Source: an uncultured Clostridia bacterium
GTDB taxonomy: Bacteria > Bacillota > Clostridia > TANB77 > CAG-508
NCBI GenBank assembly: GCA_944388665.1
Contig: CALXJQ010000002.1
Span: 1-49,535, forward strand
Length of the DNA: 49,535 nucleotides
Direction of reading: 5' to 3'
Part shown: one piece after another, positions 1,045 through 48,269 of the stretch
Layout of the letters: every line of letters starts with the position of its first letter
How positions within the stretch are numbered: position 1 is the stretch's first letter
Notes under the pieces: model-generated
Told to the model about the DNA's origin: nothing
What the model saw: only the letters and a program-made list of their open reading frames with translations
The model's database searches: none
Position numbers and translations under genes: made by a program

Positions 1045-1081
1045 CATAGACAATAAGCAATATCAGGCAAAAGGAGGCAAA

Positions 1082-11379: not shown

Positions 11380-11393
11380 ATTTAGATGTTTTT

Positions 11394-11452
11394 GGGGACG
11401 GAGGAAAAAAACACCTTAATTTTTTGCCAAAAAGGTCCGTCCCTCGTGGCAA
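11394..11452. repeat. intergenic hairpin repeat, copy A (inverted relative to 33083-33144)
   Basis: TTGCCAAAAAGGTCCGTCCC (11424-11443) is the exact reverse complement of GGGACGGACCTTTTTGGCAA at 33092-33111. It also carries the TTGCCA-N17-TGGCAA hairpin with internal CGTCCCT. Confidence 0.7.
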
Positions 11453-11459
11453 AAATTTA

Positions 11460-11488
11460 TTGACATAAATACATAAATAATATATAAT
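11460..11488 (+). promoter_or_regulatory. consensus sigma-A promoter
   Basis: TTGACA (11460-11465), a 17-nt spacer, then TATAAT (11483-11488). Confidence 0.6.
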
Positions 11489-11561
11489 ATGTATGTGAAT
11501 TTACATAAATTTACATTGGCTAATTCTAAACCGACGACTTTAAATTAAGGAGGACATTGAA

Positions 11562-11909
11562 ATGAACCAAAAATATGAGAATTTTAGCCTGCAGCAGTGG
11601 CGACAAGTCGAACAAGGCGAGTTGGAGAAATTAACAAATGAACAAATTGAGTTCTATGCAAAGCCTGAATATGATGCTTTGCAGATGGAACAAATTCGGT
11701 TGGCCATTCAAGATGGACTAAGTGAAGAGCAGCTGAATATTGGAGCAAATCCAAAGTTTAGCTGGAGGCAAATGGCTGAAATCTATAGTGGTTTCCGAAA
11801 GGGACTATCTGTAGGGGAGGTAAAGAAATATGCCAAGCCAGAACTTGATCCGCTTAGCATGTTTCAAGTTAAGGTAAAGATTCTTCATAAATGTGGCAAA
11901 TTAAATTAG
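11562..11909 (+). CDS. hypothetical protein with three ~35-aa internal repeats (G/C-richer orphan)
   Basis: AGGAGG RBS. Repeats: YAKPEYDALQMEQIRLAIQDGL / ANPKFSWRQMAEIYSGFRKGL / YAKPELDPLSMFQVKV. It looks visibly richer in G/C than its flanks (not computed). Confidence 0.6.
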   Translation: MNQKYENFSLQQWRQVEQGELEKLTNEQIEFYAKPEYDALQMEQIRLAIQDGLSEEQLNIGANPKFSWRQMAEIYSGFRKGLSVGEVKKYAKPELDPLSMFQVKVKILHKCGKLN

Positions 11910-11978
11910 CCAGCTAGTGAACAAATAACTATTGTTCATTGAGGAGAGGAGCAGAAAAATTAAAATCTGACTAAAAAT

Positions 11979-12011
11979 ACAAGATATAACAACATATCTT
12001 GTATTTTTTTT
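11979..12011 (+). terminator. rho-independent terminator
   Basis: ACAAGATAT / ATATCTTGT stem followed by a T-run. Confidence 0.7.
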
Positions 12012-12139
12012 GAAAAAATGCTAAACTAAACATTGTAAACAATATTAAATTTTATTTGATTTTATGAGAATTATATGGATAAAAAATATAATGATGATGT
12101 TTAAAGTAAAAAAGTATGTTAGAAATAGGGAGGCAAAAT

Positions 12140-14107
12140 ATGTTTAAATTACATTCAGAATATAAACCAACTGGCGACCAGCCACAGGCAATTGAATATT
12201 TAAGTAAAGGTGTTTTAGAAGGAAAGAAATACCAGACATTGCTTGGCGTTACAGGTTCTGGAAAGACTTTTACAATGGCAAATATAATTCAGAAAGTACA
12301 AAAACCTACACTTGTTTTAGCTCATAATAAGACACTAGCTGGGCAATTATATTCAGAGTTCAAAGAGTTTTTCCCTGAAAACAATGTTGAGTATTTTGTT
12401 TCATACTATGATTATTACCAACCAGAAAGCTATATTCCTTCTACAGATACTTATATAGAGAAGGATTCTTCTATTAATGATGAAATAGATAAATTAAGGC
12501 ATTCAGCAACATTGTCATTATTTGAAACTAGGGATGTAATAATTGTAGCTTCTGTTTCTTGTATCTATGGTTTAGGTGACCCAATAGATTATCAAGAAAT
12601 GATGTTATCATTAAGACCGGGCATGCAAAAAGGTAGAGATGAAATATTAAAAAAGCTAATTAATATGCAATATACTAGAAATGAAATTGACTTCAAAAGG
12701 GGCACTTTTAGGGCAAAGGGAGATGTTGTAGAAATATATCCATCAGACCAATCAGAGTCTGCAATTAGAGTGGATTTCTGGGGAGATGAAATTGAAAAGA
12801 TAACTGAAATAAATGCATTAACAGGAAAACCAATTGGTACTAGAAGGCATGTATTAATTTCACCTGCATCACATTATGTTACAACAAAGGATAAAATGGA
12901 TAGAGCAATTGTAACTATTGAAGAAGAGCTAAAAGAACGAGTAAAATATTTTAAAGATCATAATAAATTAATTGAAGCACAAAGAATAGAAGAAAGAACG
13001 AATTTTGATATAGAAATGATGAAAGAAACTGGCTTTTGCTCAGGCATAGAAAATTATTCAAGACATATAAGTGGAAGGCCAGCAGGTAGTCCACCTTATA
13101 CTTTGTTTGATTATTTTCCAAAGGATTTCTTGCTATTGATAGACGAATCACACGCAACAATACCACAAGTAAAAGCTATGTATAATGGAGATAGGGCAAG
13201 GAAGGAATCTCTTGTAAAGTATGGCTTTAGATTACCTTCAGCATTTGATAATAGGCCACTCACATTTAAAGAGTTTGAAGAAAGAATTAATCAAGTAATA
13301 TTTGTAAGTGCAACACCTGCAGAATATGAAAAAGAGCATAGCAAGGATAATGTTGTTGAACAAATTATTAGGCCAACAGGCTTGTTAGATCCAAAAATAG
13401 AAGTAAAACCAGTTACAAATCAAGTAGACGATTTGATAGAGCAAATTAGGATTAGAGTTGCTAAAAATGAAAGGGTTTTGGTTACGACTTTGACTAAAAA
13501 AATGGCAGAAGATTTAACAGAATATTTAAAAGGCTTAGATATAAAAGTAAATTACATGCATTCCGATACTAAAGCCTTAGAGAGAATGGAAATTATAAGA
13601 AATCTTCGTCTGGGAAAATTTGATGTACTAGTGGGAATTAACCTTTTAAGGGAAGGACTAGATATACCAGAAGTTTCTTTGGTGGCAATACTAGATGCTG
13701 ATAAAGAAGGATTTTTACGTTCTGAAAGGTCTCTAATTCAAACAATTGGACGTGCTGCAAGAAATACTGATGGAACAGTTATAATGTATGCTGATGAGCT
13801 AACAGATAGTATGGAAAAAGCTATACATGAAACTAACAGGAGAAGACAAATTCAAGAGAAATATAATGAAGAGCATGGAATTACACCAAAGACTATACAA
13901 AAATCGATAAGAGATAAAATATCAGTGACAAATGTTGAAGATATTGAAGTTGAATATAGACTAGAAAAAGATGAAGATATTGAAGAAACAATTGCAAAAT
14001 TAACAGATGAAATGTTAAAATATGCATCTCAAATGGAATTCGAGAAAGCCGCAGAGTTACGTGATAAAATAAAAGAATTAGAAAAAATTCAACAAAAAAA
14101 TGCATAA
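12140..14107 (+). CDS. uvrB: excinuclease ABC subunit B
   Basis: GGGAGG precedes ATG 12140. [33 protein letters not shown], the helicase motifs and the C-terminal UVR motif FEKAAELRD. Confidence 0.97.
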
Positions 14108-14174
14108 TATATTATAGACATAAAAATAATAATGGTATATAATAATTTTGAAAAATTCAAAAGAGGAGTAAGTT

Positions 14175-16952
14175 ATGAAAAAGAATATAAAAATATTTGT
14201 TTTAGTAATTGTTTTATGGATATTTATGTTATTTATTGGCGCAAATAATAGTTTTGCTATTGATGTAACATTAGAAGATAAATCAGAAGCATATAAGCAA
14301 TGGGAAAGCCGTACAGAAGAAGAAAGAATGAGGTTATATGAACCATTACCATTTAATATGTCTGTAAAAGATTCTATTAAGCGTTCTACCTATAATCAAA
14401 TGTTGAGTTTAGCAGGTGCTAATATAATTCCTTCAGATTCATATAATTTAAAAGATGATCTTCAAAATATCTATGTTAGAGATCAATTAAAAACTTCTAC
14501 TTGCTGGGCATTTTCTTTTGCCGGAACTGTAAATATGAGCATGCAGAAGCAAAGGATGATTTCTCAGCAATATTCGCCAATGCATATAGAGTATAGAGCT
14601 ACTCAAATGTTTGCAAGAAATGTGGGTGATGGAGGAAATCAATATATGGCTTTAGCATATAGTACATCTGGAAATGGTCCCGTATTAGAAGAAGATATGC
14701 CATTTTCAGAATATTATGATGAAAGCAATCCACCATCATATATGGCACCATTAGATGAAATAGATGTACCAACTAAAACACCTGAAGTAGAAATTGATAA
14801 TGCGACAATATTTGATGGAATCTATAAAACATATCAAAATGGACAAGTTACTTCATATCATGATGGCAACAATACAGAAACTTACAGTGACAGCGAGGTA
14901 AAGGCAATAAGAAATTTAATTAAACAACACATTATGGAGTACGGTCCTCTTGCAGGATTATTGTATTCTGATATAGGAATAGATCAAAGTGGAAATTATG
15001 TTAGCCCTAGTTATAATTCTAGCACAGCTGCATATTATACTAATGATGCATCAGAAGTGGCAAATCATGCTACAATAATTGTTGGATGGGATGATAATTA
15101 TTCTGTAGATAACTTTAGAAGTGACAAAAAGCCTAAAAATCCAGGAGCATATATTGTACTAAATTCTTATGGCGAGAATTTTGGAGAAGGCGGATTTTAT
15201 TATATCTCTTATGATGATGCTATTGTAGAAACTTCACTTATTGGTCTTACAAGTGTAAATGATGAAATAAATTATGATAAAATATATCAATACAATGAAT
15301 TAGGAATGAATCAATCAATATCATTGGGTGATGCAGGAACTATTTATGGAGGAAATAAATTTACTAGAGAGCAATTGGATGATAAGGTAGAATATATTAC
15401 ATCTGTTGGTGTGTACTTATCAGAAGCAGAAGGACTAGAAATTTATATAAACTCAGAAGATGATAATATTCCAAACTCAAAACTAGTATGTACTCCAGGA
15501 GCATTAGAAGCAGGGTACCACAACATAGTACTACCATCACCAATAGAACTAACTGGAGACAAATTTGCAATAGCGATAAAATACACAAATCAAGAGGGAG
15601 CCAGCCTTCCGATAGAAGCAAATTTGAAAGAAAGTAATTTTGCACCAGAAGGCAATATGTATGACTCAGCTAAAAGTGGATCAAACCAAAGCTTCTTTTC
15701 ACCAGATGGAGCATATTGGCAAGAATTGAATGATACTAGCGCAGGTGAAGACATTGTATTAAAAAATACAGATACTTGTATTAAAGTCTTTACACGTTTG
15801 GCAGATAAACCTAAAGAAATAAATGTTGAAGGTGTTAGCCTTGATAAGCAAAGCATTACTTTAACTGAAGGTGAAACAGATACACTAACTGCAACAATTA
15901 CTCCAGACAATGCTACAAACAAAAATATTACATGGTCAACATCAAATCCAGATGTGGCTAGTGTACAAAATGGGGTAGTTACTGCAAATAGTGCAGGTAC
16001 AGCTACAATTACTGTTACAACAGAAGATGGTAACAAAACTGCGCAATGTCAAGTAACTGTTATTCAAAAGCCAATTGAAATTATTCATGTACAGGGAGTT
16101 TCTTTGGATAAAACTAATATTACTTTAACTGAAGGCGAAACAGATACATTAACTGCAACAGTTATGCCAGATGATGCTACAAATAAAAACATTACGTGGT
16201 CAACATCAAATCCAGATGTGGTTAGTGTACAAAACGGAGTAGTTACTGCAAATAGTGCAGGTACAGCTACAATTACTGTCACAACAGAGGATGGCAATAA
16301 AACTGCTACGTGTCAAGTAACAGTAGAAGAACAACCTGTTCAAATTATTCACGTAGAAGAAGTATCTCTAAACAAAGAAAAAGATACATTAGAAATTGGA
16401 AATACCACAAACTTAAATGCTTCAATTACGCCATCAGATGCTACTAATCAAAAAATAATATGGACAAGCTCAAACCCTGACGTAGCAACAGTAAATGATT
16501 ATGGTGTTATAAAGGCCTTAAAAGAAGGAACAACTATAATTACGGCAACAAGTGAAGATGGAAATATATCAGATTCTTGTGAAATAACAGTTATCAAAAA
16601 AACAAATACTGATGACGATATATATCAAGATGATGACCAAAATACAGGTGGAAATAATACAAACACTGGAAATAATAGCAATAATAATAGCGCTACTAGC
16701 ACGAATAACACAGGTAATAGTGCAAATAGTGGAAACAATGACAACTCTGAAAATAGAGATGATGGAAATATGAACATAACTGTTGGACAAATAAATCAAG
16801 GAAATAGTCCACAAGTAGACAATACCATCTCTAATATTTCAAGACTACCAAATACAGGAGCTACATGGATTTTAATATTTATTACTCTAATAATTCTTAT
16901 ATTTGGAATTGTAAAATTTATTGAATATAGAAATTTGAAAGATGTAAAATAA
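14175..16952 (+). CDS. cell-wall-anchored papain-like (C1 family) cysteine peptidase with three Big_2 repeats and an LPXTG sorting signal
   Basis: Signal peptide. QLKTSTCWAFSF (catalytic Cys) and NHATIIVGWDD (His). Three ~85-aa repeats V(S/E)LDK..ITLTEGETDTLTATI.P.DATNKNITWSTSNPDVA.V..GVVTA...GTATITVTTEDGNKTA.CQVTV. An Asn/Gly/Thr-rich stalk, then LPNTG, a TM and a basic tail. Confidence 0.85.
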   Translation: MKKNIKIFVLVIVLWIFMLFIGANNSFAIDVTLEDKSEAYKQWESRTEEERMRLYEPLPFNMSVKDSIKRSTYNQMLSLAGANIIPSDSYNLKDDLQNIYVRDQLKTSTCWAFSFAGTVNMSMQKQRMISQQYSPMHIEYRATQMFARNVGDGGNQYMALAYSTSGNGPVLEEDMPFSEYYDESNPPSYMAPLDEIDVPTKTPEVEIDNATIFDGIYKTYQNGQVTSYHDGNNTETYSDSEVKAIRNLIKQHIMEYGPLAGLLYSDIGIDQSGNYVSPSYNSSTAAYYTNDASEVANHATIIVGWDDNYSVDNFRSDKKPKNPGAYIVLNSYGENFGEGGFYYISYDDAIVETSLIGLTSVNDEINYDKIYQYNELGMNQSISLGDAGTIYGGNKFTREQLDDKVEYITSVGVYLSEAEGLEIYINSEDDNIPNSKLVCTPGALEAGYHNIVLPSPIELTGDKFAIAIKYTNQEGASLPIEANLKESNFAPEGNMYDSAKSGSNQSFFSPDGAYWQELNDTSAGEDIVLKNTDTCIKVFTRLADKPKEINVEGVSLDKQSITLTEGETDTLTATITPDNATNKNITWSTSNPDVASVQNGVVTANSAGTATITVTTEDGNKTAQCQVTVIQKPIEIIHVQGVSLDKTNITLTEGETDTLTATVMPDDATNKNITWSTSNPDVVSVQNGVVTANSAGTATITVTTEDGNKTATCQVTVEEQPVQIIHVEEVSLNKEKDTLEIGNTTNLNASITPSDATNQKIIWTSSNPDVATVNDYGVIKALKEGTTIITATSEDGNISDSCEITVIKKTNTDDDIYQDDDQNTGGNNTNTGNNSNNNSATSTNNTGNSANSGNNDNSENRDDGNMNITVGQINQGNSPQVDNTISNISRLPNTGATWILIFITLIILIFGIVKFIEYRNLKDVK

Positions 16953-30348: not shown

Positions 30349-30651
30349 ATGACAATAGATGAAAGAAAAACTAGTAATAATGCAACAAGTGTAATCCAAA
30401 ATTTAATTTTGGAAAATCGTGGGAAGCTTAGTGTATCAGGCGTTCTTGATGTGTTAAGTTTTGATGATCAAGTAGTGATAGTAGAAACAGAACTTGGCTT
30501 ATTAACAGTAAAAGGTGAAAATCTTAGAATAAATAAATTAAGTATTGATACTTCAGAAGTAATTATAGAAGGAGATATTTCATCTTTAGCATATAGTGAA
30601 AAAGATATGGAAAAAGGAAAAGGCAGTTTTATGAGTAAAATATTTAAATAG
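30349..30651 (+). CDS. yabP: sporulation protein YabP
   Basis: LILENRGKLSVSGVLDVLSFDDQVVIVETELGLLTVKGENLRINKL is the YabP signature. It is followed by yabQ and divIC, as in Bacillus. Confidence 0.9.
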   Translation: MTIDERKTSNNATSVIQNLILENRGKLSVSGVLDVLSFDDQVVIVETELGLLTVKGENLRINKLSIDTSEVIIEGDISSLAYSEKDMEKGKGSFMSKIFK

Positions 30652-30690
30652 AAATTGCATAAAATAGAGAATAGGAGGGAATCAAATAAA

Positions 30691-31149
30691 ATGATAAGTA
30701 ATCAGGCATATTTATTTGCAATTTTTATAATTGTTGGAGTAATCATTGGCTTAGTATTTGATTTCTTCCGAATTTTAAGAAAAGTTTTCAAAACAGCTGA
30801 TATCATTACATATATAGAAGATATTATTTTTTGGATATTGACAGGTTTTATAGTTTTGTATTCTGTTTTTACATTTAATAATGGTGAAATTAGAATTTTT
30901 ATGTTTTTAGGCATCTTGCTAGGTGTAATTATATATATGATATTTTTTAGCAAATACATTATTAAGATTAATGTAAAAATTCTTAAGTTTATAAAACTGA
31001 TTATAAAAACACCTATAGTTTTTATATATAAACTACTCAAAAAATATTTATTTAATCCTATTCACATAGTAATAATAAATATTAGTAAATTCTCTAGTAA
31101 ACTGATACATACATCCAAAAAGAGCTGCAAAAAATTGAAAAATTTGTAA
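30691..31149 (+). CDS. yabQ: spore cortex biosynthesis protein YabQ
   Basis: GGAGGG precedes ATG 30691. FAIFIIVGVIIGLVFDFFRILRK, multi-TM, conserved position after yabP. Confidence 0.8.
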   Translation: MISNQAYLFAIFIIVGVIIGLVFDFFRILRKVFKTADIITYIEDIIFWILTGFIVLYSVFTFNNGEIRIFMFLGILLGVIIYMIFFSKYIIKINVKILKFIKLIIKTPIVFIYKLLKKYLFNPIHIVIINISKFSSKLIHTSKKSCKKLKNL

Positions 31150-36520: not shown

Positions 36521-37550
36521 ATATAGAATAGGGCATAAATGTATTGACAACTAAAATTACAAATGATATAAATAAAAATGCATATATCATTAAAAAATAT
36601 GTTATTTATTTGCATAGGGAATAGAAGTATATTTGATTGTTTAAAACATTGCGCAAAATCAAAGTTTTGCGCATAAAGAGATAGGAATATTAATATAGCA
36701 GCTATAAGCCTACACTTTATTATGTTCAGGGCTTTTAGCTGCTTATTCTTTCTTATTGGTTTTATTAATACTAGTTTAGTTTTATCTTTATGTTTTTATG
36801 CTTTTTAAAATCAATTTTAAGAAATTTTTTTATCTTACTTATATAATTTCATTTATCATTATATAAATTTATATCTATAATTTTTTATCATCTTATTCTG
36901 AATTTATTAAAAATCTCTAAAATGCCTATTCTTCTAAGTTTGGCTTATTTTACGTTCAACAAACTATATGCTCCGAAAAATAAAACGGCTTAAAATCGAT
37001 TCTCGTGCGTCACTTTTTTGCTCATTTATCTGACTTTTTCTAAAAACTTGATTATTATTAATTTTTTGAAATTTTCTATATAAATAAAGTATAATTTTAT
37101 TATATTTTTATTATATACTACAAACTTTATATTTCAATTATTTAAATGTCTTAAAATCAATTCTCAAAGATATTTTATAATTAACAGATTTAAAAATTAA
37201 ATTTTATAAATATTTATAATTATTAATATTGCATTTTAAATATTGTATTTTTAATATAAAGATTTAAAATTTGAATTGTAATAAATAATTTTGTGATTTG
37301 TAATAATTTTCTTATATAATAACAAATGTTCGTTCTTGAAATTTATATAAAATGATTTTTGCAGTATGCTCAAAAAATGAGCATACTAAATTTTCGGCCA
37401 ATAGTTTTAATACACTTATTAAAATTTAATTTAAAATATCATCATATTAAAAATGGCATCTATTCCCCTACTCCCTGCAGTTCTAAACTTTTTTGTTTGG
37501 ATTCGCTATTCTATTTGCTTCACATATTACTTTATAGAATTTTTCCTTAT

Positions 37551-37885
37551 TTATGCTAGATTTGTTATATCGCTTAGATATTTTTCATAATTTTTATCAT
37601 TAAAAAACATCTTGGTTCTTGAATATCCATTTAATCCAAACTTCTTTATGATGTTAAAAAGTCTACATTCCTCAATTACTTCATCTTTGGTTAATTTCGG
37701 ATAGTGTTTTCTATTATATGCATAACACCTTCTAAGTTTTCATCAATGTGATGGGCTATATCATGGTACACTGCAATGCAATAAACAAGCTCATAATTAA
37801 TATTCTTAACTTCATCTGCAAATTTTAAGCTTCTATTAATTACATATTCAGCATGTTCTATACTATATTCATTGCAACTGAAAGG
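37551..37885 (-). pseudogene. HD-domain phosphohydrolase-like gene remnant (no start codon, frameshifted)
   Basis: The minus-strand translation CNEYSIEHAEYVINRSLKFADEVKNINYELVYCIAVYHDIAHHID... stops. It resumes in another frame as YNRKHYPKLTKDEVIEECRLFNIIKKFGLNGYSR...NLA. AAGGAGG is upstream but no in-frame start follows it. Confidence 0.4.
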
Positions 37886-37917
37886 CCTCCTTAATCTACT
37901 TAATTATTTCAAATAAA

Positions 37918-38194
37918 CTAGGCAATTTTTATTCCTCCTTCTCTAGCCCATTCGTAAAAATATGGTGCGCCTTTTTCTACTATTTTTTTAAACATTTCCT
38001 TTTCAACTTCACTATAATGTCCTTCTTCATATACTACTTTATAAGTTGGAAGTTCAAATCTTATACTGTCAAAACCATATTCCTTTGGCCTTTCAAAATG
38101 AACATAAAGCACTTCTTCACCATTATCGTTTTTCACTATATTTAGAAAAAGTAACTAATGTTTCATCTGCATATTTACAAAATGGATACATCAT
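37918..38194 (-). pseudogene. small conserved-looking gene split by a frameshift in a T5 run
   Basis: AAGGAGAG is followed by ATGATG at 38194, giving MMYPFCKYADETLVTFSKYSEKR-stop. Removing one T of ACTTTTTCT joins it to ...LNIVKNDNGEEVLYVHFERPKEYGF... (ORF 37918..38136). Confidence 0.45.
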
Positions 38195-38352
38195 CAATTA
38201 ACACTCTCCTTTACCTTAATTAATGTATATTATAACATTAATTTAAAAAATTTACCACCTTTTTCATTCTCCTTTTTTTTGAGTTGTCGCAAATTTTGTG
38301 GCAACTCAAATCGTATATATCCTCGTTCTCTTCTTTTACACTTTATTTATTT

Positions 38353-38685: not shown

Positions 38686-39294
38686 CTAATTTAAAAAATT
38701 CATTACTAAATCTATGATTACATCCTTTTCTTTAGGATTTGACTCGGCTATGAGTAATGTTAATGCAGCTAATGTGTTATTGTCAATTGTTTGTTTTCCA
38801 TTTTTATATAAAATTCCGTAGAAATTTAAGAAATATATAAACAATGTAGCTGCAATTCTTTTATTTCCATCTGCAAATACATGATTCTTAACAATTAGAT
38901 ATAGAAAGTTCGCAGCTTTTTCTTCTATACTCTTATAAATATCGTGTCCGTCAAAGCTTTGATAAATATTTCCTATTATTGACTCTAATCCATTATCTCT
39001 TTCTATTGCAAATAATGAACTTTCTTCATTAAATCTTAATTTATTTATAATTTCTATACAATCTTTATACTCAATTTTTCTTTCATCAATATTTCCTTTT
39101 ACTTTTTTTAGAGTTCCATGGTCATAATCATCTAATAAATCTAAAGCTTTTGAATATTCGCCAATTACTTTTAATATTTCTTTAGCATCAGAGCCTTCTA
39201 GTCTTTCATCGATTCTATTAGCAATATCAATTAATTTTACTGTTTTTTCTAAATATTCTAGTCTTTTTTGATTGACTGCATATCCTTTTAACAT
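38686..39294 (-). CDS. RhuM-family / Fic-DOC domain protein, N-terminally truncated
   Basis: Fic-type motif HVFADGNKRIAATLF. The frame stays open upstream to 39354, encoding AKSKNGVIFRKWATKVLKDYMLKGYAVNQKRL, the RhuM core motif. The usual ~130 N-terminal residues are absent. Confidence 0.7.
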   Translation of the reverse strand: MLKGYAVNQKRLEYLEKTVKLIDIANRIDERLEGSDAKEILKVIGEYSKALDLLDDYDHGTLKKVKGNIDERKIEYKDCIEIINKLRFNEESSLFAIERDNGLESIIGNIYQSFDGHDIYKSIEEKAANFLYLIVKNHVFADGNKRIAATLFIYFLNFYGILYKNGKQTIDNNTLAALTLLIAESNPKEKDVIIDLVMNFLN

Positions 39295-39325: not shown

Positions 39326-41117
39326 CTAAAAATTACACCATTCTTTGATTTTGCTCACCCTATCTGATGACAGGTCAGTATTAAAAGAATTTTCAAGGTC
39401 TGATGAAATGGTTGGAATGAAAAACTTTTTTTTGGATTCTCCTATTTGACTATTTAAGAAATATATTTCAATGTTCTCTCCATCACCATAGATTTTTTCT
39501 ATAAATAAGCCTACAATATCTCTTTTAGTTTTTAAATCAAATGTATGGAATATGTCGAAAGAATTATCAATAACTTTTAGCAAATCTTTTGCTGTTTGCA
39601 TTTCAGAATTATTATTAATCTTTGTTTTATTTTTTATATTTGCTATTTGTGTTTCTAAATTTTGTTTTTGTTCTTTTAATTCTCTCAACTTATAATTTAC
39701 CATATCTATTAGATCAATGTCAATATACTGTAGTTTCTCTACTAATTTGTCAATTTCTTCTTTGTTTTTATTATATGCATTTTGTAAGAACTCTAATTCG
39801 CTATTAGAATTATCGTTATTCTTAATTGATGCTATTTTTTGAAGTTCTTTATATATTTCAGAATTAGGAACAAAAGTATTCTTCATTATTTCAAATACCT
39901 TGTTATCAATTTCACTTCCAACATTTAGGGATTGACACTTATGTCCTCGTGATTTTTCTTTTAAGTTACAACAGTATCTATAATAAGCATTTCCATCTTT
40001 ATCTGCTTTTCCCATATTTTTCGCTCTCATAAGTGAATTACATCTTTTACACCTTAATAAACCTGTTACAATAGTATTAGTCTTTTTCAATATGGCTGCT
40101 CTATATTTCTTATCAGCATTTTTTTCAATAAGCATTTGAACAGCAACCCAATCTCTCCCGTCAATAATTCCTTGATGCAGACCAACTGCAATTATCCATT
40201 CTTCTATTGGTTTTTCTTTTCCCCCATACCCACTTGTTTTGTTGTATGTCAAAAAACCGTATTTGCCATTATTATTTTTTCTGTCATCATCTTCACGGTA
40301 AATAAATATTCCTTTTGAATTAAAATACTCCATTGTATCATTGTCGTTTTTAGCATATACTGGATTTGTAAGTATTTTTCTTATAGCACATATTCCAAAA
40401 TATACCCCCTTTCTTGTTCTTATATTATTATTCATTAAATATGTCAGTAATTTTGACATTGATTTTAATTCTAAAAATTTAGCAAATATTAATTTAACCT
40501 TGCTTAATTCTTCATCATTTATAACAAGTTTAGATGCGACTTTACTTTTTTTAGATATACAGTCCTTATCTTCCTCACATACCTCTACTTTTTTATATCT
40601 TTCTGTGCTAAATCCGTAAAGGAGCTTCGCCTCCTAACCATGTACCTGTTTTTGATAATTCAAATAAGTTATCTCTAATTCTTTCTGCAATTACTTCTCT
40701 TTCTAATTGTGCAAATACAGATGCTATATACATCATAGCTCTTCCCATTGGTGTTTTAGTATCAAATTGCTCTTTTATTGAGATAAACGAAGTTTCTAAT
40801 TCATTTAATTCATTCATTAAAGAAGAGAAATCTGCTATATTTCTACTAATTCTATCTAATCTGTAGCAAATGAGAATATCATAAGGATATTTTCTTTCAT
40901 CTTCTAAAAAATCTTTAAATCTTGGTCTATCTAAACTTCCTCCTGAAAAGCCTTCATCTTCATATATTACAATTTCTACATCATATATATCTTCTGGATA
41001 ATTTCTTTTTATATATTCCTTTGCAAGTTCAATTTGGTTTCCTACTGAATCTCCTTTATCTGTATATTTTGATTTTCTTGAGTATATCGCAATTCTTATT
41101 TTTATTTTTTCGTTCAT
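39326..41117 (-). pseudogene. large serine recombinase interrupted by a 1-nt frameshift near 40617-40620
   Basis: AAGGAGG precedes ATG 41117. IAIYSRKSKYTDKGDSVGNQ (catalytic Ser), ICYRLDRISRN, then ...GTWLGGEAPLRI-stop. Deleting one T gives GGEAPYGFSTERY..., continuing into ORF 39326..40459. That part has a recombinase domain, the zinc ribbon CKRCNS...CCNLK...HKC and a coiled coil. Confidence 0.8.
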
Positions 41118-41357
41118 TTTTGCCTCCTTTTTTATGATTTTAAAAAAGGAGGCTTGTCTATTCAAATGTATAAAATTAACTGTTTTTTAATAATTGTAGA
41201 ATTGACTTTAATATATTTTCTTTATCAGTTTTTGTTATTGGTAAACTCTGCACATATTCTTTTATTAAAATCGCTTTTACAAAGGCAAGATTATGTATAT
41301 ATGCATCACTTCCTTGATTATCTATTTTTATATTCATCTTCTATCATCTCACATAAA

Positions 41358-41789
41358 TTATCTTTCTTTTCCTCTATTCTCTTTTCGTTTTGCTTTTACT
41401 TTCTCTTCCATTTCAAAAAAACTTCTCAAAATTCTATAATTAATTTTTCCAGTTTCTCCTAATGTTGTAAATCTATCTCCTATTGAAATTACATCAACAT
41501 CATTTGCTAATGCTTTATCAATAAAAGAGAAATAATCTTTTCTATTATTTCCTAAATGTTTAAATTTAAGTAAAATCACAATATCTACCAACTTATTTTC
41601 AATTAATCTATTTATTTCCTTTATTTGTTCATTATCTTTTTTTATTTTACCAGTATAAAGATAAATATGTTGTAAATTCCATTCTTTGTTATTTGTTTGT
41701 TCTATAAAATTTTTAATATTTTTTATGGCATTTTCCCCTGTATTTATTCCCATATCCGAAAAAAAGCCATAGGCAATTACTCTTTTCAT
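41358..41789 (-). CDS. stand-alone resolvase-like domain protein with degenerate catalytic residues
   Basis: KRVIAYGFFSD corresponds to the resolvase YARVST motif. VDIVILLKFKHLGNN corresponds to DxxxVxxLDRLGR, with both Arg lost. ISIGDRFTT...GKINYRILRSFFEMEE matches the core fold. There is no HTH or recombinase C-domain. Confidence 0.6.
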   Translation of the reverse strand: MKRVIAYGFFSDMGINTGENAIKNIKNFIEQTNNKEWNLQHIYLYTGKIKKDNEQIKEINRLIENKLVDIVILLKFKHLGNNRKDYFSFIDKALANDVDVISIGDRFTTLGETGKINYRILRSFFEMEEKVKAKRKENRGKER

Positions 41790-41791
41790 AT

Positions 41792-42388
41792 TTACCTACC
41801 TTTCTTTATTATATTATCTGCTTGTTTCTCTATTTCTTCTGGTGAATATAATTCCATTAGCGTTAATATATATTCTCCAAACAATTTATTGCTTATCTCT
41901 AAATTTCCAGTGTTTTTCAAATACTCTTTTGCTACAATTCCATAAGATGAAACTTGTTTTCTAGTAATAAACTCTGTTTTTTCTTCTTTTTCTAACGCTA
42001 ATTTTTCAAAATACTTCGCATCTTTAAGTGCTTTATTCAAATCTATACCTAATGCAATGATAATACCTATATCGATTTCTTTCATATCATTATTTCCAAT
42101 GTGTCCAATATAATTTCTTATTCTTGATTTATCTATTACTCTTATCTGTTCTAACAAAATTAACGAATCTTTAGGTAATCCGTTACTTTTTTCATCTATA
42201 AAAATGTGTGTGGGTAATTTTGATTTAACTTTTACTTTACTTGTAATTGGTGCAATTATAACTGTTGGACTGTAAAGATTTCCTACATTATTTTGTAAAA
42301 TAACAACTGGTCTAATTCCTGTTTGCTCGCTTCCTACTACATCTTCATTTAAAACTGCATAAAATATATCTCCTCTATTTATTTCCAT
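41792..42388 (-). CDS. MazF/PemK-family endoribonuclease toxin with ~85-aa C-terminal extension
   Basis: RGDIFYAVL...GSEQTGIRPVVILQNNVGNLYSPTVIIAPITSK...KLPTHIFI...GLPKDSLILLEQIRVIDKSRI is canonical MazF. Residues ~115-198 are an additional K/E-rich helical region. Confidence 0.85.
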   Translation of the reverse strand: MEINRGDIFYAVLNEDVVGSEQTGIRPVVILQNNVGNLYSPTVIIAPITSKVKVKSKLPTHIFIDEKSNGLPKDSLILLEQIRVIDKSRIRNYIGHIGNNDMKEIDIGIIIALGIDLNKALKDAKYFEKLALEKEEKTEFITRKQVSSYGIVAKEYLKNTGNLEISNKLFGEYILTLMELYSPEEIEKQADNIIKKGR

Positions 42389-42539: not shown

Positions 42540-42898
42540 TTTCTAAACTCCTTTTTTACTTAAGGCTATCTATTAAAAATTAAATAGATAGCCCTTTATT
42601 ATTTCTATCTTTCTCCAAAAAATTCATTAAACGGCATTTAGCAAATGCTCCACAGGACTTTCACCTATCTGCTTTAACAGACTTGCTCTCAATGCGTGGG
42701 ACGGTTTTATCTCGCTCGTGCTATGACTGAACAAGTGTATCATTATACCCACTATTCATTATCGCCTTATGAGCTGCTATACTCATATTTAAGTTAAGTA
42801 GGTTGTAAATCTACTTTTTAACTAGCTCCTAATAGTAGGAATGTATTTAATGAATTTGTATTCAATTTTCAAAGTTCTTATCTTATTTCAACTAAAAC

Positions 42899-42937
42899 GA
42901 AACAAGTGAAAAAGTTTTAACCTCTTTCACTTGTTTC
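42899..42937 (-). terminator. terminator of the sigma-r4 gene
   Basis: A 13-bp stem GAAACAAGTGAAA / TTTCACTTGTTTC, followed on the minus strand by GTTTTAGTT. Confidence 0.6.
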
Positions 42938-43456: not shown

Positions 43457-43922
43457 TATTATTACCTCCGTTCAATTTGCTTGTTTGTGTGCAAATTGAA
43501 CAGAGGTGGACTACGGCAATGTTTTTCTTTTAGTAAATAAAAAAAATCAAATGCACAGTATAACACTACACATCTGATTTCCTTAAAAGAGCATAAAATG
43601 CCAATATAATGAATATCTGTTAATATTAAATTGTGTTTTTTTACCGTTATTGTTTCATACATTGGCAAAACTCCCTTGTGAATTTTGCTTAAACAAATTC
43701 TCAAAGGAGTTTTTATAAGGGGATCAATTTAATTAATCAAAGTCTAAAAGATTTAGTAAGTCTTTTGTTTCCTTAAAATCTTTTGTAATTCGCCTCCTTA
43801 AAGACTTTGATTAAGTTAGCATGATTATATAAAGATTTTTGCTTTTTTGATGAAAAGGGCGAAAAAAGGCTATAAAACAGCTAAAAAAGGCTACAATCAA
43901 CTGTCTTTTTTTACCAATTCTA

Positions 43923-43951
43923 TTGTGTTTACATAAATTATATGATATAAT
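43923..43951 (+). promoter_or_regulatory. promoter of the Spo0A-like gene
   Basis: TTGTGT, a 17-nt spacer, then TATAAT with an upstream TG (TGATATAAT). Confidence 0.45.
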
Positions 43952-43995
43952 AGTAACGAATTTTATTATAAAAAGAACATTTGTAGGAGGTTACA

Positions 43996-44712
43996 ATGCG
44001 AAAAGTGCTTATTGCTAACCATGATATTGACCAGAATAAGCAACTCTGCCAATATCTTACAAATGATAAAAGATTTGAAATAACCGAAACAACAGATGGA
44101 AAAAGTACATTGAATAAATATCTTGAAATAAAGCCAAATGTTTTAATTTTAGATACAAATTTTAAAGATATGAATTGTATTGAAATTATTAATAGACTTT
44201 CAATGACTATTGAAGAAAAAAGAAACTGTAATACTATACTTGTAGTGGATAAGTCAAACGAAAATATTAAAATTACCAATATGGCAAAAGTATATAAGGT
44301 AATTGAATATTCTGATTTAGACGATTTATTTAATACAATTAATGAGATATGCTCTTACTCGGAATATGAGGAATTAACTGAATTCGACATTGATAAGCTA
44401 TTCTTGAAATTAAAAATTAAACTAAACTCTAATGGTGCTGATTATTTAAGAGAATCAATTACTCAATGCTATTATTATCCGAATTTATTGAAAAAATTAG
44501 ATGATATTTTCTTTATGCTTGCCAGAAAACATAATAAGACAAATGATGCAATTAGGTCTAGTTTTAGGTCAGCATTAGAGCCTTTAAATAACTTTAGAGA
44601 TACGATTGATTATCCAATTATGAAATATTTTGATTATGGTTGTAAAATTACCCCTCAAAGATTTTTAGAAATTGTTGTAATGTATTTACACATAATAAAA
44701 AATAAGAAATAA
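43996..44712 (+). CDS. Spo0A paralogue: degenerate receiver domain plus Spo0A_C-type DNA-binding domain
   Basis: AGGAGG RBS. N-terminus KVLIANHD...KPNVLILDTNF...ILVVDKS has REC layout with the acidic DD pair replaced by NH. C-terminus GADYLRESITQCYYYPNLLKKLDDIFFMLARKHNKTNDAIRSSFRSALE parallels Spo0A GYMYLREAI...[33 protein letters not shown]. Confidence 0.7.
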   Translation: MRKVLIANHDIDQNKQLCQYLTNDKRFEITETTDGKSTLNKYLEIKPNVLILDTNFKDMNCIEIINRLSMTIEEKRNCNTILVVDKSNENIKITNMAKVYKVIEYSDLDDLFNTINEICSYSEYEELTEFDIDKLFLKLKIKLNSNGADYLRESITQCYYYPNLLKKLDDIFFMLARKHNKTNDAIRSSFRSALEPLNNFRDTIDYPIMKYFDYGCKITPQRFLEIVVMYLHIIKNKK

Positions 44713-44751
44713 ATTGATTTTTTGAAAATTCAAACTTATTTCTTATTTTTT
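44697..44751. terminator. bidirectional terminator between the convergent Spo0A-like and radical SAM genes
   Basis: A perfect 16-bp stem AAAAAATAAGAAATAA (44697-44712) / TTATTTCTTATTTTTT (44736-44751). It spans both stop codons. Confidence 0.65.
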
Positions 44752-44754
44752 ATA

Positions 44755-45933
44755 TTAATGGTTCTCTATATATTCTTTATAGCTTTTCATAATATCGTTA
44801 ATTTCAGAAGAATTTACTGGTTCTGTTACAATAGAATTAAATTTTCTACCTATTATATTATATACCTTTTCTATATCATTATCATTGATGGAATTATCTG
44901 TAATCAAATTGAATACAGGAACATCATTTTTTAAGTTTTCTTTTGTTTTTTCTATCATATTAACTCCTGTTTCAACATCATACTTTGCAAACACCATTTC
45001 AGGTTTTAGATTTACTATTTTTTGGTATGTGTCCTCACCATTTATTGCAGTTCCAACAATTTCTACAAAAGGAAGTTGATTTATTGAATCGACTATTTGC
45101 TCTCTAATTTGTTCTTTGTTATGAGCGATTAATGTTCTAATTTTATTAGATGAATTAATTTTGTCAAAATCTATATAATCTTGTTTTAGAGCATTTGCAA
45201 AATAATGATCCTTTCCGTTTTCAGTTCTAATAACATCTGCATTTGGAAGTACAACTATGCTTTTTTCAAACTCATTTTGTTTTTTATATTCTACCTTTTT
45301 TATATTCTCAAATGTTTTTAAACTTTTAATTCCATTTTCTAATTCTTCTTCCGTTATTTCAAATAGTTTCTCGTTTTCTAATGCCCTCTCTCTTATAGGC
45401 ATAAATTTTAAAAATTTCCACTTTTCAATTTTATAATTATTTAAAAACTCCCCTAATTCTTCTAGTTTATTTACATTTTGCTTACTTACTACCGTATTTA
45501 TTCCAATTTTAATTTTCTTATTTTTTGTTTTTTCTAGCAAATTCTTGATAATTTCAAAATGGTTATTTTCTTTTCCTAAAGCTGTATTTATATCATTTTC
45601 GATAGAATCAATTGACAAATTTATCTCATCTAGTATATTTAATATGTCATCTACATATTCAGTATTATTTTTAGATAAGAATATTCCATTAGTTACAAGT
45701 TTGTTGTGTAATCCCATTGTTTTTGATTTTTTCATCAAATCTCTGACATTAGGATAAAGGACAGCCTCTCCTCCAGTCCATGTAATATGATTAATTCCAT
45801 TCTTTACTAAATTATCTAATACCTTTTCATTTTCACTATAAGACAAATCAGGTATATTAGTGAATCCAAAACAATATTTACATCCTTGGTTACATTTTGT
45901 TGTTATCTTCCAACATACTTTCTTCTTAACCAT
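44755..45933 (-). CDS. viperin-like radical SAM enzyme fused to a C-terminal Spo0A-type pseudo-receiver domain
   Basis: AGAGGA precedes ATG 45933. Matches to viperin motifs: [18 protein letters not shown] (CX3CX2C), [55 protein letters not shown] (cf. RWKVFQ). Residues ~275-392 ([12 protein letters not shown]...[26 protein letters not shown]...VFNLITD...) follow a CheY/Spo0A receiver layout with degenerate acidic pocket. Confidence 0.7.
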
Positions 45934-46021
45934 TTTAATCCTCTTTTCATATATAAAATTATACATTAATATTATATATGAGTTTCATAGAAAATACTAT
46001 TCTAAGATTTTTAAGGATTGT

Positions 46022-46063
46022 TAAAAAAAGCATAACAAAAAATATCCTATGTTAAGGATATTT
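46022..46063 (-). terminator. terminator after the LysR gene
   Basis: AAATATCCT / AGGATATTT stem overlapping the stop codon, followed on the minus strand by T-runs. Confidence 0.55.
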
Positions 46064-46938
46064 TAATGTTTTAAATAATTATTAATAAATTCTTTATCTG
46101 CTTTTGTCAGTTCGTCTTTTAAATGAATTAGATTTAATTTAATACTTGGAAGCTCTATTGGTAATTCTACTTCATATAATTCATTATTATCTAATTCTGC
46201 CTTTACTGCTTGTTTTATTACATAGGCTATACCCATATTCTTTTTAACTGCTTGAACTCTTATTTCTGTAGCATCACATATCATATTTGCATTTATGTTT
46301 ACATTGTATTTACTTAATATCTCTTTTAACCTTTTTGTTGTTCTTGTATTTTCTAAATTTAAAATGCAATTCAAATTTTCTAATTCGTTTATATTTGAAA
46401 TAGTTAAAGGAGTTTTAGATACAAATATATTATTAATTGTTGCCAACTCTTCACATACAATATTATTAAGTTCTATGGAAACATCTGTTATTGCGAAATT
46501 TATCTCGTGGTTTCTTAACAACTCAAGAATTTTGTTTGTGTCTACTTCGCATATAATTGTGAACTTGATTTTTGGAAAAACTTTTTTTACTTTTTCTATT
46601 TTCTCCATTAAGAAATAACTTGTTAAATGTGATGGACAAGCAATTTTTATATTTGCACTTGACATACTATTTTTATCTTGTGCCATTTTTTCAGCAAAAT
46701 CAAAACTTGAAATAGATTTATGCACTATTTCATATAATTCTTTACCGTTTTCCGTTAATGTTACACCTTTACTTTCTCTGTTAAATAATATCAAGTTTAA
46801 TTGTTTTTCTAAATTTGATATTTGCGTACTTATATTAGCAACAGATAATCCGTCTAGTTTATCAGATGCTTCATTATAACTTTTTGATTCTGCAACTTTA
46901 CAAAAAATCTTATATAAATTCAAATTCACATTAGACAC
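46063..46938 (-). CDS. LysR-family transcriptional regulator
   Basis: N-terminal wHTH LYKIFCKVAESKSYNEASDKLDGLSVANISTQISNLEKQLNLILFNRESKGVTLTENGKELYE and a C-terminal substrate-binding fold. GTG start. Confidence 0.85.
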   Translation of the reverse strand: MSNVNLNLYKIFCKVAESKSYNEASDKLDGLSVANISTQISNLEKQLNLILFNRESKGVTLTENGKELYEIVHKSISSFDFAEKMAQDKNSMSSANIKIACPSHLTSYFLMEKIEKVKKVFPKIKFTIICEVDTNKILELLRNHEINFAITDVSIELNNIVCEELATINNIFVSKTPLTISNINELENLNCILNLENTRTTKRLKEILSKYNVNINANMICDATEIRVQAVKKNMGIAYVIKQAVKAELDNNELYEVELPIELPSIKLNLIHLKDELTKADKEFINNYLKH

Positions 46939-47026: not shown

Positions 47027-48106
47027 TTATGTATTTTGTTGTTTTTTATACCATAATTCTGCTTTTCTTATATCATATTTTGTTCCAGTTTTTAGTTTAA
47101 ATGACTTCACTAATTCAATTAAGTTTTTAATTTCTTTTTCGTCAGGATTTTCTTTTTTAGTTTCTATTTCTAAAAATATTCCTAAATGATCAATAACTTG
47201 TATAAATACAATATAGTTTTCATTTTCGTAACGATAGTTTTTATCTATCATTCTTAAAAATCTAGTAAATCCTAAACTATTAAGCAATTTTTCGGCATTA
47301 TTTATATCATCTATTTTTAATATAGTTTTTTCTGTTCCTATTTCAAATCCTTCAGAATTATACGCTCTCTTTTTAGAAATAATTTGCTTATCGTTATCAT
47401 TGGTATAACGAATAATTAGTGTATCTGTTATACTGCCATTTTGTGGTACATATTGTTTTGTTTTTTGGTTACACATATAAATATCATCTAAAGTAAATTC
47501 TTCAACATAATTGAAATTATTACTTTCTAACTTCTGTTTAATACTATCTAATTCTTCAAATACTTCACAAGTAATTTCAGTATTATTAATATTTACCTCT
47601 TCCCTATCCTCTGCATTTGTATATAATTTTGATTTTTTTTCTAGTAATACAAAGTTGCAAGAAATATTTGTAAAGAATGGGATTTTTAGTTTAACTACAT
47701 TTCTATATATTTTTTTAGCTTTTGAATAGATTATTTCTTTATTGTCATTTATAAAATCACTTTCTGCTTGTAATAAATCTTTATACTTTTTTCCTCTAGC
47801 ATTAAAGTCTAACAATTGTATAGCATTTAAAGGAACAGGTATCATTTCAGCAAATCTTATTATAGATACATTTTCTTTTTTTCTGTTTTCAACTCGTATA
47901 AAACTAGGATTATCTTTATATTTATTATAGCTGGCTTTATATGAATAAAGAGGAGCAAAATATAAATGATTTTCTACTTTTAATACGATTCCAATATAAG
48001 GTCTTTTATTTTCTTTATTCCAACTTACATGATTATCAAATTGGCTTAAATATTCTATATATTCATCAGCTACAATATAAAATTTTAATGTTTCATTTTC
48101 TCCCAT
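47027..48106 (-). CDS. type III TA toxin (ToxN/AbiQ family endoribonuclease) fused to a C-terminal CYTH (CyaB/triphosphate-tunnel)-like domain
   Basis: AAGGAGAAAAAG precedes ATG 48106. The N-terminal ~165 aa read LKFYIVADEYIEYLSQFDNHV...RPYIGIVLKVENHLYFAPLYS...IIRFAEMIPVP...CNFVLLEKK and match AbiQ/ToxN. The C-terminal ~190 aa read LIIRYTNDNDKQIISKK...LGFTRFLRMIDKNYRYENENYIVFIQVIDHLGIFLEIE..., fitting the CYTH pattern ...LGF...K.R..Y......V.LD.V..LG.F.EIE. Confidence 0.75.
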   Translation of the reverse strand: MGENETLKFYIVADEYIEYLSQFDNHVSWNKENKRPYIGIVLKVENHLYFAPLYSYKASYNKYKDNPSFIRVENRKKENVSIIRFAEMIPVPLNAIQLLDFNARGKKYKDLLQAESDFINDNKEIIYSKAKKIYRNVVKLKIPFFTNISCNFVLLEKKSKLYTNAEDREEVNINNTEITCEVFEELDSIKQKLESNNFNYVEEFTLDDIYMCNQKTKQYVPQNGSITDTLIIRYTNDNDKQIISKKRAYNSEGFEIGTEKTILKIDDINNAEKLLNSLGFTRFLRMIDKNYRYENENYIVFIQVIDHLGIFLEIETKKENPDEKEIKNLIELVKSFKLKTGTKYDIRKAELWYKKQQNT

Positions 48107-48126
48107 CTTTTTCTCCTTTATAAACA

Positions 48127-48160
48127 AAACAGGGTATATTTCTACACCCTGTTTGAATTT
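48127..48160 (-). terminator. terminator between the antitoxin repeats and the toxin gene
   Basis: AACAGGGT / ACCCTGTT stem (48127-48152), followed on the minus strand by TTTGTTTAT. This matches the ToxIN-type layout. Confidence 0.6.
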
Positions 48161-48161
48161 T

Positions 48162-48269
48162 AAATCTCCCTACTCAAGGCAAGGGTTTTCCTAATGTAAA
48201 TCTCCCTACTCAAGGCAAGGGTTTTCCTAATGTAAATCTCCCTACTTAAGGCAAGGGTTTTCCGAATAG
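48162..48269 (-). ncRNA. ToxI/AntiQ-like antitoxin RNA: three tandem 36-nt repeats
   Basis: The plus-strand unit AAATCTCCCTACTCAAGGCAAGGGTTTTCCTAATGT occurs at 48162-48197 and 48198-48233 (identical). A third copy at 48234-48269 has 4 substitutions. The units are head-to-tail with no spacers, directly upstream of the toxN-like gene. Confidence 0.8.

Follow-up and report, generated by a model that had tools for sequence, protein, structure and literature searches.

The gene at positions 43996-44712 (+) of a 49,535-nt stretch of an uncultured Clostridia contig (CALXJQ010000002.1; the whole stretch is called the window here) encodes a Spo0A-type protein, a receiver followed by a Spo0A_C effector domain. 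It lies on a mobile island of about 15.3 kb with a serine recombinase gene at its edge, and it is a divergent member of an uncharacterised family of short (about 240 aa) Spo0A-type regulators borne on mobile genetic elements (MGEs). The regulator is not Spo0A itself. Its likeliest job is transcriptional control within the island, through an array of 0A-like boxes upstream of its own gene, rather than competition for the 0A boxes of the host. An initial annotation, made from the letters of the window, had described a mobile-element-borne Spo0A paralogue with a degenerate receiver, which might bind 0A boxes and rewire host sporulation or regulate the convergent radical SAM gene. Our analysis bears out the observation and supports part of the interpretation.

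The open reading frame (ORF) is intact. An AGGAGG ribosome-binding site (43985-43990) lies 6 nt 5′ of the ATG at 43996, and the product is 238 aa long. Against NCBIfam TIGR02875, the Spo0A equivalog model, residues 5-217 align to model positions 6-236 of 262 with 40.7 bits (E=1.6e-10). The two Pfam domain models give matches slightly under their gathering scores: Spo0A_C (PF08769) covers aa 133-229, or model positions 2-102 of 104, with 20.8 bits (E=4e-4; gathering score 25 bits), and Response_reg (PF00072) covers aa 4-94 with 27.6 bits (gathering score 30.2). Spo0A_C is matched independently by 14 of 19 close homologues and, at E≤0.01, by 74 of 91 diverse family members, the best at E=6.2e-18. 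When a profile of the C-terminal 113 aa is searched against the PDB, it finds only the two Spo0A_C crystal structures (E=0.004 and 0.008; the next match is at 0.44). Modelled alone with AlphaFold2 (AF2), the C-terminal domain reaches a pLDDT of 93 and a pTM of 0.86, and its top seven Foldseek matches are all Spo0A_C chains, from 1fc3 and 1lq1 (TM 0.73-0.83, E=5e-4 to 8e-3; next E=1.4). The full-length AF2 model (pLDDT 83) returns receiver matches only, and so is uninformative on Spo0A_C. A hidden Markov model (HMM) of 117 family sequences (116 homologues and the window protein) gives B. subtilis Spo0A 121 bits over its whole length; the N- and C-terminal parts of the B. subtilis sequence used agree with the PDB alignments. 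The equivalog match, the homologues and the structural comparison bear out the Spo0A_C pattern that had been read by eye in the C-terminal half. Chicken-gut metatranscriptome assemblies hold contigs that cover the regulator gene, the spacer upstream of it, the radical SAM gene and the neighbouring LysR gene, for example 43979-44554 (X26) and 43501-44673 (X27); strand and DNA carry-over are not distinguishable from these contigs.

The N-terminal half reads as a pseudo-receiver. Foldseek places it in the CheY-like receiver fold (TM 0.74-0.83 to single-domain receivers), as the initial annotation had proposed from its topology. Relative to B. subtilis Spo0A, four of the five phospho-signalling residues are lost: D10/D11 have become N8/H9, T84 is V84, and K106 is Y105. 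The acceptor, D56 in Spo0A and D53 here, is the sole quintet residue kept, and it varies in close homologues, being G in P0007, N in P0023 and A in P0027. The acidic pair is non-acidic in all close homologues. Because the Mg2+-binding pair and the Thr and Lys switch residues are gone, classical Asp phosphotransfer is very unlikely, which strengthens a doubt first raised over the NH at the acidic pair. Distant members of the family (20-32% identity to the window protein) mostly have a complete quintet, such as DDDSK or EDDSK, and the quintet is lost stepwise toward the members closest to the window protein. The window protein is therefore the degenerate tip of the family, and to judge from these alignments the ancestors of the family were probably phosphorylatable.

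A complete receiver and Spo0A_C architecture, in a 49.5-kb window that shows no second spo0A, might be expected if this were the housekeeping Spo0A of a divergent lineage. That reading is extremely improbable, and we reject it. The match of 40.7 bits to TIGR02875 is far under the 200-bit equivalog cutoff, and the phospho-site is degenerate. The gene is inside the island, 98-99.6% identical copies of which lie in unrelated flanks, and the synteny of the family is with recombinases, not with spoIVB and recN. The initial view that this is not the housekeeping copy is supported; for a canonical spo0A elsewhere in the genome the evidence is indirect, namely yabP and yabQ in the window.

The recognition helix is altered as well. 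The predicted helix (aa 183-203, nt 44542-44604) carries an invariant IRSSFR(S/T)AL motif and reads DAIRSSFRSALE. Of 12 positions aligned to the Spo0A helix, which is otherwise highly conserved, 7 differ; when HMMER aligns the regulator to 1fc3 and 1lq1, its sequence there is DAIRSSFRSALEPLN. By the numbering of the family HMM alignment, R and S stand in place of Spo0A E213 and R214, which are reportedly base-contacting residues in the 1LQ1 work, and R217 is retained. The element shows no enrichment of canonical TGNCGAA boxes; it contains two TGTCGAA copies, both intragenic.

These differences bear on the proposal that the regulator acts on the host as a Spo0A mimic, binding host 0A boxes or titrating sporulation kinases or partners and so rewiring sporulation. 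The C-terminal domain is predicted to share the fold of the Spo0A DNA-binding domain. The chromosomal part of the window has yabP and yabQ, which suggests that the host lineage is sporulation-competent, and some related elements adjoin spore-coat genes (cotJB and a short cotJC-like gene in L055). The island also encodes, about 450 nt past the right end of the window, an intact stand-alone receiver of 153 aa (KVLIADDN...ITD...IISA...RKP) that is closest to the Spo0A receiver (30% identity, 56.6 bits). Even so, we consider mimicry improbable: the changes in the recognition helix include those opposite E213 and R214, 0A boxes are not enriched, and the receiver would be a poor kinase substrate because residues required for phosphate acceptance are missing. 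Action on host 0A boxes, as initially suggested, is doubtful and currently unsupported.

The regulator has many relatives. A profile search of 1.84 billion cluster representatives found 1002 at E≤1e-3, 196 at E≤1e-10 and 73 at E≤1e-30. Full-length matches are nearly all 230-250 aa, shorter than Spo0A, and the relatives come from metagenome-assembled genomes of uncultured Clostridia from chicken, human and other guts. Annotation of the members is uninformative throughout; the JGI label for one is ‘CheY-like chemotaxis protein’. There are no relatives in INPHARED/GenBank phages, PLSDB plasmids or IMG/VR. Jiang et al. (2019) found PF08769 enriched on MGEs of gut Firmicutes, without follow-up (PMC6907783), and Galperin et al. 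(2022) counted two spo0A paralogues in 10 Clostridiales genomes and three in one. The existence of this MGE-associated family has previously been glimpsed statistically. Because of the size of the family, the published MGE enrichment and the spo0A paralogues, the premise that Spo0A_C is essentially restricted to the master regulator is incorrect.

Comparison with other contigs defines the island. From about 39260-39284 to its end, the window is 99.4-99.6% identical to four contigs (L005-L007 and L010) whose left flanks are unrelated, and in all four the identity breaks 45-65 nt past the recombinase stop codon. In L008 and L009 (98.6-99.0% identical), homology continues through a Fic gene to about 38690. 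The segment common to two other contexts, with different flanks on both sides, is 15,257 bp. The far end of the island is just past a Y-family polymerase gene, about 5 kb outside the window, and about 10.3 kb of the island is inside. The mobile-element location is supported because near-identical copies lie in different flanks on both sides, with the recombinase at the edge. No empty integration site was found among contigs with the same flanking ATPase.

Starting at the far end, the gene products of the island are, in order, a UmuC-like polymerase, two Xre-type helix-turn-helix (HTH) proteins, a 194-aa ORF, the 153-aa receiver (these last two at L006 15953-17013, minus strand), ToxN/AbiQ, LysR, a viperin-like radical SAM-receiver protein, the Spo0A-like regulator, a sigma-region-4 protein, PemK, a 143-aa ORF and the recombinase. 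The 15.3 kb contain no phage structural genes (capsid, terminase, tail) and no conjugation genes. A prophage reading was rejected, given the lack of structural genes and of relatives in INPHARED or IMG/VR.

The 540-nt spacer between the regulator gene and the divergent sigma-like gene contains two strongly conserved promoter regions. The predicted regulator promoter is near-invariant across loci with 38-65% protein identity and recurs in distant loci. On the minus strand, the TATAAT of the putative divergent promoter (43824-43829) is conserved in all clades, with a -35 region at about 43846-43852 that is TTGACA in relatives. Between the two promoters lies the candidate operator, which reads GGGCGAA-AAA-AGGCTAT-AAA-ACAGCTA-AAA-AAGGCTA, 7-mer direct repeats with 3-bp spacers, as in tandem 0A boxes; Tandem Repeats Finder (TRF) reports a period of 10 and 4.0 copies at 43853-43893. 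In clades whose proteins are 38-65% identical the array keeps its position, and promoter and array are conserved where the remaining spacer is not alignable. Arrays of at least three GG[CT][GT]A[AT] boxes at 9-12 bp spacing occur once per locus, 100-130 nt 5′ of the regulator ATG and nowhere else, and by this strict pattern they are counted in 27 of 54 loci. The window array does not fit this pattern, having one degenerate box and one that ends in C. Seven distant loci have arrays at the same place that are phased in the same way but differ in sequence, and some of these contain TGTCGA(A). Their boxes are TTGGTA-type in L057 (five), TGCTA/TGTCA in L058 (six, among them a perfect TGTCGAA), TGTCGA in L044 (two) and ACGAAAA/TCGTAAA in L066. 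The array of L013 contains TGGCGAA. By a crude G/C-only autocorrelation at lag 10-11, the array region ranks first within its locus in 5 of the 13 loci and falls in the top 2.5% in 11. No repeat array lies 5′ of the radical SAM or LysR genes.

Two hairpins were also seen in this spacer. An inverted repeat (43733-43750/43797-43814) lies in what is presumably the 5′ leader of the sigma-like transcript, and both of its arms change between clades (TCAAAGTC...GACTTTGA in one, AAATAGTC...GACTATTT in another, the compensatory changes being read by eye), which suggests an RNA stem. RNAalifold gave no consensus for this repeat, as the 3′ arms of the different clades were aligned out of register. The second hairpin (43464-43480/43491-43507) covers the ribosome-binding site of the sigma-like gene.

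What binds the array? The boxes retain G2, C4, G5, A6 and A7 of the 0A box, and the specific base contacts of Spo0A are G2, C4 and G5 (PMC3485338). Host Spo0A~P, if the host has a spo0A gene, might therefore occupy the phased boxes and tie the island regulator and the recombinase operon to the onset of sporulation, a reading that the perfect or near-perfect 0A boxes of L013, L058 and L044 would also fit. We hold it to be improbable, as the boxes diverge between clades (GGCTA, TTGGTA, TGTCA, ACGAAA) while the specificity of host Spo0A is highly conserved. This divergence favours a co-evolving cognate binder. The most economical reading of these sequences is that the Spo0A-like protein of each island binds its own array and controls both promoters.

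The genes on the array side of the regulator are constant. The order recombinase, small ORFs and sigma-like gene, all pointing away from the regulator gene, is found in the window and in L001-L010, and the same left-side order is seen in each of the five distant contexts whose flanks are long enough (L044, L055, L057, L058 and L064; 29-42% identity). Counted by gene context, the divergent arrangement is seen in all seven that have sufficient flank. The divergent partner gene encodes 135-158 aa and is sigma-like or GerE-like. In the distant contexts, the sigma-like gene is followed by an ORF of 55-68 aa (an HTH_16 match in L058, a faint one in L055), by further small ORFs (one of about 140 aa in L044, L055 and L064), and then by one or two serine recombinases. 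Downstream of the regulator, the genes vary: viperin-like and LysR genes in L044 and L055, a DEAD/ResIII helicase and then a gene with a faint NTPase match after P0079 (L058, intact receiver), and Big_14 and a full sigma factor, among others, after P0101 (L064/L065, intact receiver). Because the left side is constant, the downstream side varies and the viperin-like cassette has its own LysR, the regulator gene belongs to the island backbone and the cassette to its cargo.

Taken together, we think it somewhat probable that the regulator is a phosphorylation-independent switch regulator of the island, acting through the 0A-like array. It would bind the array at 43853-43894 as head-to-tail multimers, as Spo0A does on tandem 0A boxes, and the bound protein would control both its own promoter and the operon that runs on into the recombinase gene. 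Control of both divergent promoters would make it the switch regulator of the island. The pseudo-receiver may serve as a module for dimerisation or partner binding, and one candidate partner is the pseudo-receiver on the neighbouring viperin-like enzyme.

That enzyme is viperin-like by its sequence. The PADLOC pVip models match it at E=8.5e-39; it scores 117.9 bits against NCBIfam NF038283 (viperin_w_prok), under the 180-bit cutoff, and we do not claim full viperin membership for it. Its relatives are called from Met12 (at 45933). The last 130 aa or so are receiver-like (E=8.5e-5 to the LiaR receiver, by phmmer against the PDB), in agreement with the initial reading, and this receiver is degenerate too, with H-N at the acidic pair and K at the acceptor Asp. 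BLASTP of the regulator against this C-terminus found no significant similarity between the two receivers of the window. In L011, the receiver is a separate 133-aa gene, with a PfkB kinase gene between it and that of a 257-aa radical SAM enzyme. No report of a viperin-receiver fusion was found in the literature searched.

Several points weigh against the regulator being an island switch of the kind we favour. The trio of Spo0A-like gene, convergent radical SAM-receiver gene and LysR is present in every close-clade locus (38-100% identity, about 40 loci). The receiver is degenerate in 4 of 5 viperin-associated clades (P0029 keeps D-E, D and K), whereas the four members whose cargo is different or unknown all have an intact quintet. 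This coincidence of degeneration with viperin cargo fits a cargo-linked role, in a small sample of clades that are not phylogenetically independent. The window array is the most degenerate seen, only in the top 1.6% of the window by autocorrelation, and its assignment as a candidate operator rests on position, phasing and conservation. Host Spo0A or the sigma-like protein could bind the same boxes. Finally, since the recombinase is frameshifted, any ‘mobility switch’ in this island may be a vestige.

That the regulator is functionally tied to the viperin-receiver cassette is a live alternative, although we judge it to be on the unlikely side. The regulator would be a dedicated regulator or sensor of a viperin-like defence cassette, its pseudo-receiver pairing with that of the enzyme and coupling enzyme state or phage infection to transcription. 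The trio persists at 38-42% identity, including around P0029 and P0033 (42% identity), one of them with a UMPH-1 nucleotidase inserted. The separate L011 receiver beside the regulator gene is a Rosetta-stone pattern, with weak similarity to the regulator’s own receiver (25% over 102 aa), and the distribution of degenerate receivers just described points the same way. On the other hand, members with other cargo (L058 and L064) hold the same backbone position, the cassette already has a LysR regulator, and its radical SAM and LysR genes have no upstream array. The regulator and radical SAM genes are convergent rather than co-transcribed, and their receivers show no significant pairwise similarity. 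The regulator may control the radical SAM gene, as initially put forward, but its association with the divergent operon of the sigma-like and recombinase genes is better conserved, being constant across the family.

The two ideas could also be joined in one scheme, which we regard as unlikely. Serine-recombinase islands of gut Clostridia would use Spo0A-derived regulators and diverging 0A-like arrays as a switch. Ancestral members, with intact receivers, would take phosphate from host sporulation kinases or from the stand-alone receiver of the island, tying excision or cargo expression to sporulation. The clade of the window protein would then have swapped phospho-input for receiver-receiver signalling from the viperin-like antiviral enzyme, so that island transcription answers phage infection.

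Table 1. Features of the window, in order of position
Feature	Coordinates	Strand	Basis or remark
yabP	30349-30651	+	Sporulation gene, chromosomal part
yabQ	30655-31149	+	Sporulation gene; followed by divIC
Approximate recombinase-side end of the ~15.3-kb island	39260-39284	.	Identity break against L005-L007 and L010
Large serine recombinase, split	39326-41165	-	Pfam Resolvase, then Recombinase/Zn_ribbon, in two ORFs
PemK/MazF-like toxin	41792-42388	-	Pfam PemK, E=6e-32
pemK RNA motif	42650-42746	-	Rfam RF02913, 37.8 bits (above gathering score 34.8)
Small sigma-70 region-4-like protein, 158 aa	42980-43456	-	Pfam Sigma70_r4; TIGR02937, 42.1 bits; divergent from regulator gene
Putative divergent promoter of sigma-like operon	43824-43852	-	TATAAT is the reverse complement of 43824-43829
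Candidate operator, four 10-bp-phased 0A-box-like direct repeats	43853-43894	+	TRF; conservation
Predicted regulator promoter, TATTGTGTTTACATAA-N-TGATATAAT	43920-43951	+	Sequence; extended -10 at 43943-43951
Spo0A-like response-regulator gene	43996-44712	+	ORF and ribosome-binding site; TIGR02875; near-threshold Pfam Response_reg and Spo0A_C
Pseudo-receiver domain, aa 1-121; quintet N8 H9 D53 V84 Y105	43996-44358	+	Alignment to Spo0A and CheY receivers; Foldseek
Spo0A_C-type six-helix DNA-binding domain, aa 126-238	44371-44709	+	C-domain model, Foldseek, PDB profile, conservation
AT-rich 21-nt inverted repeat between convergent genes	44695-44753	.	95% complementary
Viperin-like radical SAM enzyme with C-terminal pseudo-receiver (aa ~270-403)	44755-45966	-	PADLOC, NCBIfam, PDB search
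LysR-family regulator	46063-46938	-	Pfam HTH_1 and LysR_substrate; syntenic in ~40 loci; co-directional with radical SAM gene
ToxN/AbiQ toxin gene and upstream repeats	47027-48267	-	Pfam ToxN, E=3e-39; PADLOC AbiQ, E=1e-43

The island recombinase (Table 1) is split by a 1-nt insertion near 40610-40625, located by comparison with the intact homologue of L002: the window reads TTA-C-GGATTTAGC and L002 reads TTAGGTTTTACA (GGEAPLGF...). Every one of the 98-99.6% identical copies, in their different genomic contexts, shares this frameshift. The recombinase of the distant element L064 is likewise broken. Adjoining the recombinase is the 143-aa ORF (41358-41789, minus strand), which has a partial Resolvase domain; ORFs of 140-143 aa with no Pfam match on record sit at a similar position in L044, L055 and L064. 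Its product is a candidate for an accessory or directionality factor. A Fic- or RhuM-type gene (38686-39294, minus strand) abuts the recombinase end in the window and in 9 of 10 contexts (not in L001), and the homology to L005-L007 and L010 breaks within about 35 nt of the start codon of this gene. The island may target Fic/RhuM-type genes or supply their 5′ end.

The island also carries two toxin genes. The pemK RNA motif lies 5′ of a 54-aa ORF and the PemK gene, and metatranscriptome depth is high directly upstream, at 42800-42917. The ToxN/AbiQ toxin (47027-48127, minus strand, 366 aa) has an extra C-terminal domain of about 195 aa without an assigned function. Upstream of it, at 48161-48267, a 36-nt unit is repeated three times in tandem (97% matches, TRF score 200), which is typical of ToxI-type antitoxin RNA. 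The inverted repeat between the convergent regulator and radical SAM genes is a likely bidirectional terminator.

Positions 1-36 kb of the window are ordinary chromosome, with fba, smpB, uvrB, a Mur ligase gene, guaA, secA, prfB, rho and a copper ATPase gene. An AT-rich stretch of about 1.8 kb (36521-38352; about 21% GC, many short tandem repeats, no ORF of at least 100 aa) separates the chromosomal ATPase region from the MazG-like and Fic genes. A second large serine recombinase, intact and 552 aa long (1004-2662, plus strand), is encoded at the window's left edge beside a peroxiredoxin gene and fba, and may be the end of another integrated element. In L055 (1-3657), a related island with regulator P0033 adjoins cotJB and a short-looking 136-aa Mn-catalase (CotJC-like) ORF, and it may be an insertion into a spore-coat gene. 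In L002-L004, at about 10972-16720, the LysR/viperin-like pair is followed by genes for a pyrophosphatase, a guanylate kinase, a thymidylate kinase, a methyltransferase and a B12-binding radical SAM protein. This run looks like a larger nucleotide-modifying cluster.

There are several known systems with which the island and its regulator can be compared. The first is Spo0A itself (1qmp/1dz3 for the receiver, 1fc3/1lq1 for the effector). The two share a two-domain architecture that is alignable end to end, the six-helix Spo0A_C fold, the YLREAI, helix-turn-helix and C-terminal TP..F helix motifs, and a (candidate) operator of spaced 7-mer direct repeats. Unlike Spo0A, the regulator is about 30 aa shorter, through a short linker, lacks the acidic pair, Thr and Lys, has the recognition helix given above, and is encoded on a mobile island rather than at a chromosomal spo0A locus, far under the equivalog cutoff. 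Second, atypical response regulators such as HP1043, NblR, JadR1 and those with FrzS-type receivers keep the receiver fold with the Mg2+-binding or switch residues replaced. By analogy, the window protein would presumably be controlled by expression level, ligand or partner protein; it differs from them in having Spo0A_C rather than an OmpR- or NarL-type output, in its mobile element, and in its relatives with intact receivers.

Third, modules of the Tn916/Tn5397 type have a sigma-like Orf7 and a small HTH protein, Orf8, upstream of the recombinase, with the regulator Orf9 on the opposite strand. The island resembles them in gene arrangement: a sigma-region-4 protein (and HTH_16 in relatives) leads to the recombinase, a regulator faces the other way, and cargo adjoins. 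The island regulator is Spo0A-type rather than an Xre-type repressor, and the 15.3-kb island is without conjugation genes. Finally, the neighbouring enzyme has a radical SAM core whose best matches are to models of prokaryotic viperins (pVips). As with pVips, genes for nucleotide kinases or nucleotidases lie near its relatives (PfkB in L011, UMPH-1 in L044, guanylate and thymidylate kinases in L002-L004). It differs from pVips in scoring under the NCBIfam viperin cutoff and in its fusion to a pseudo-receiver, and its antiviral role is putative.

Spo0A is usually taken as a single-copy marker and as the master switch of endospore formation. Given the family described here, matches to Spo0A_C call for caution as sporulation markers in metagenomes. 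Mobile islands of gut Clostridia have taken up the Spo0A DNA-binding domain on a large scale, phospho-signalling being progressively lost, and the family offers a tractable model for a response regulator turning phosphorylation-independent. It also draws attention to an as yet unstudied class of putative island switches, and to a fusion of viperin-like enzyme and receiver.

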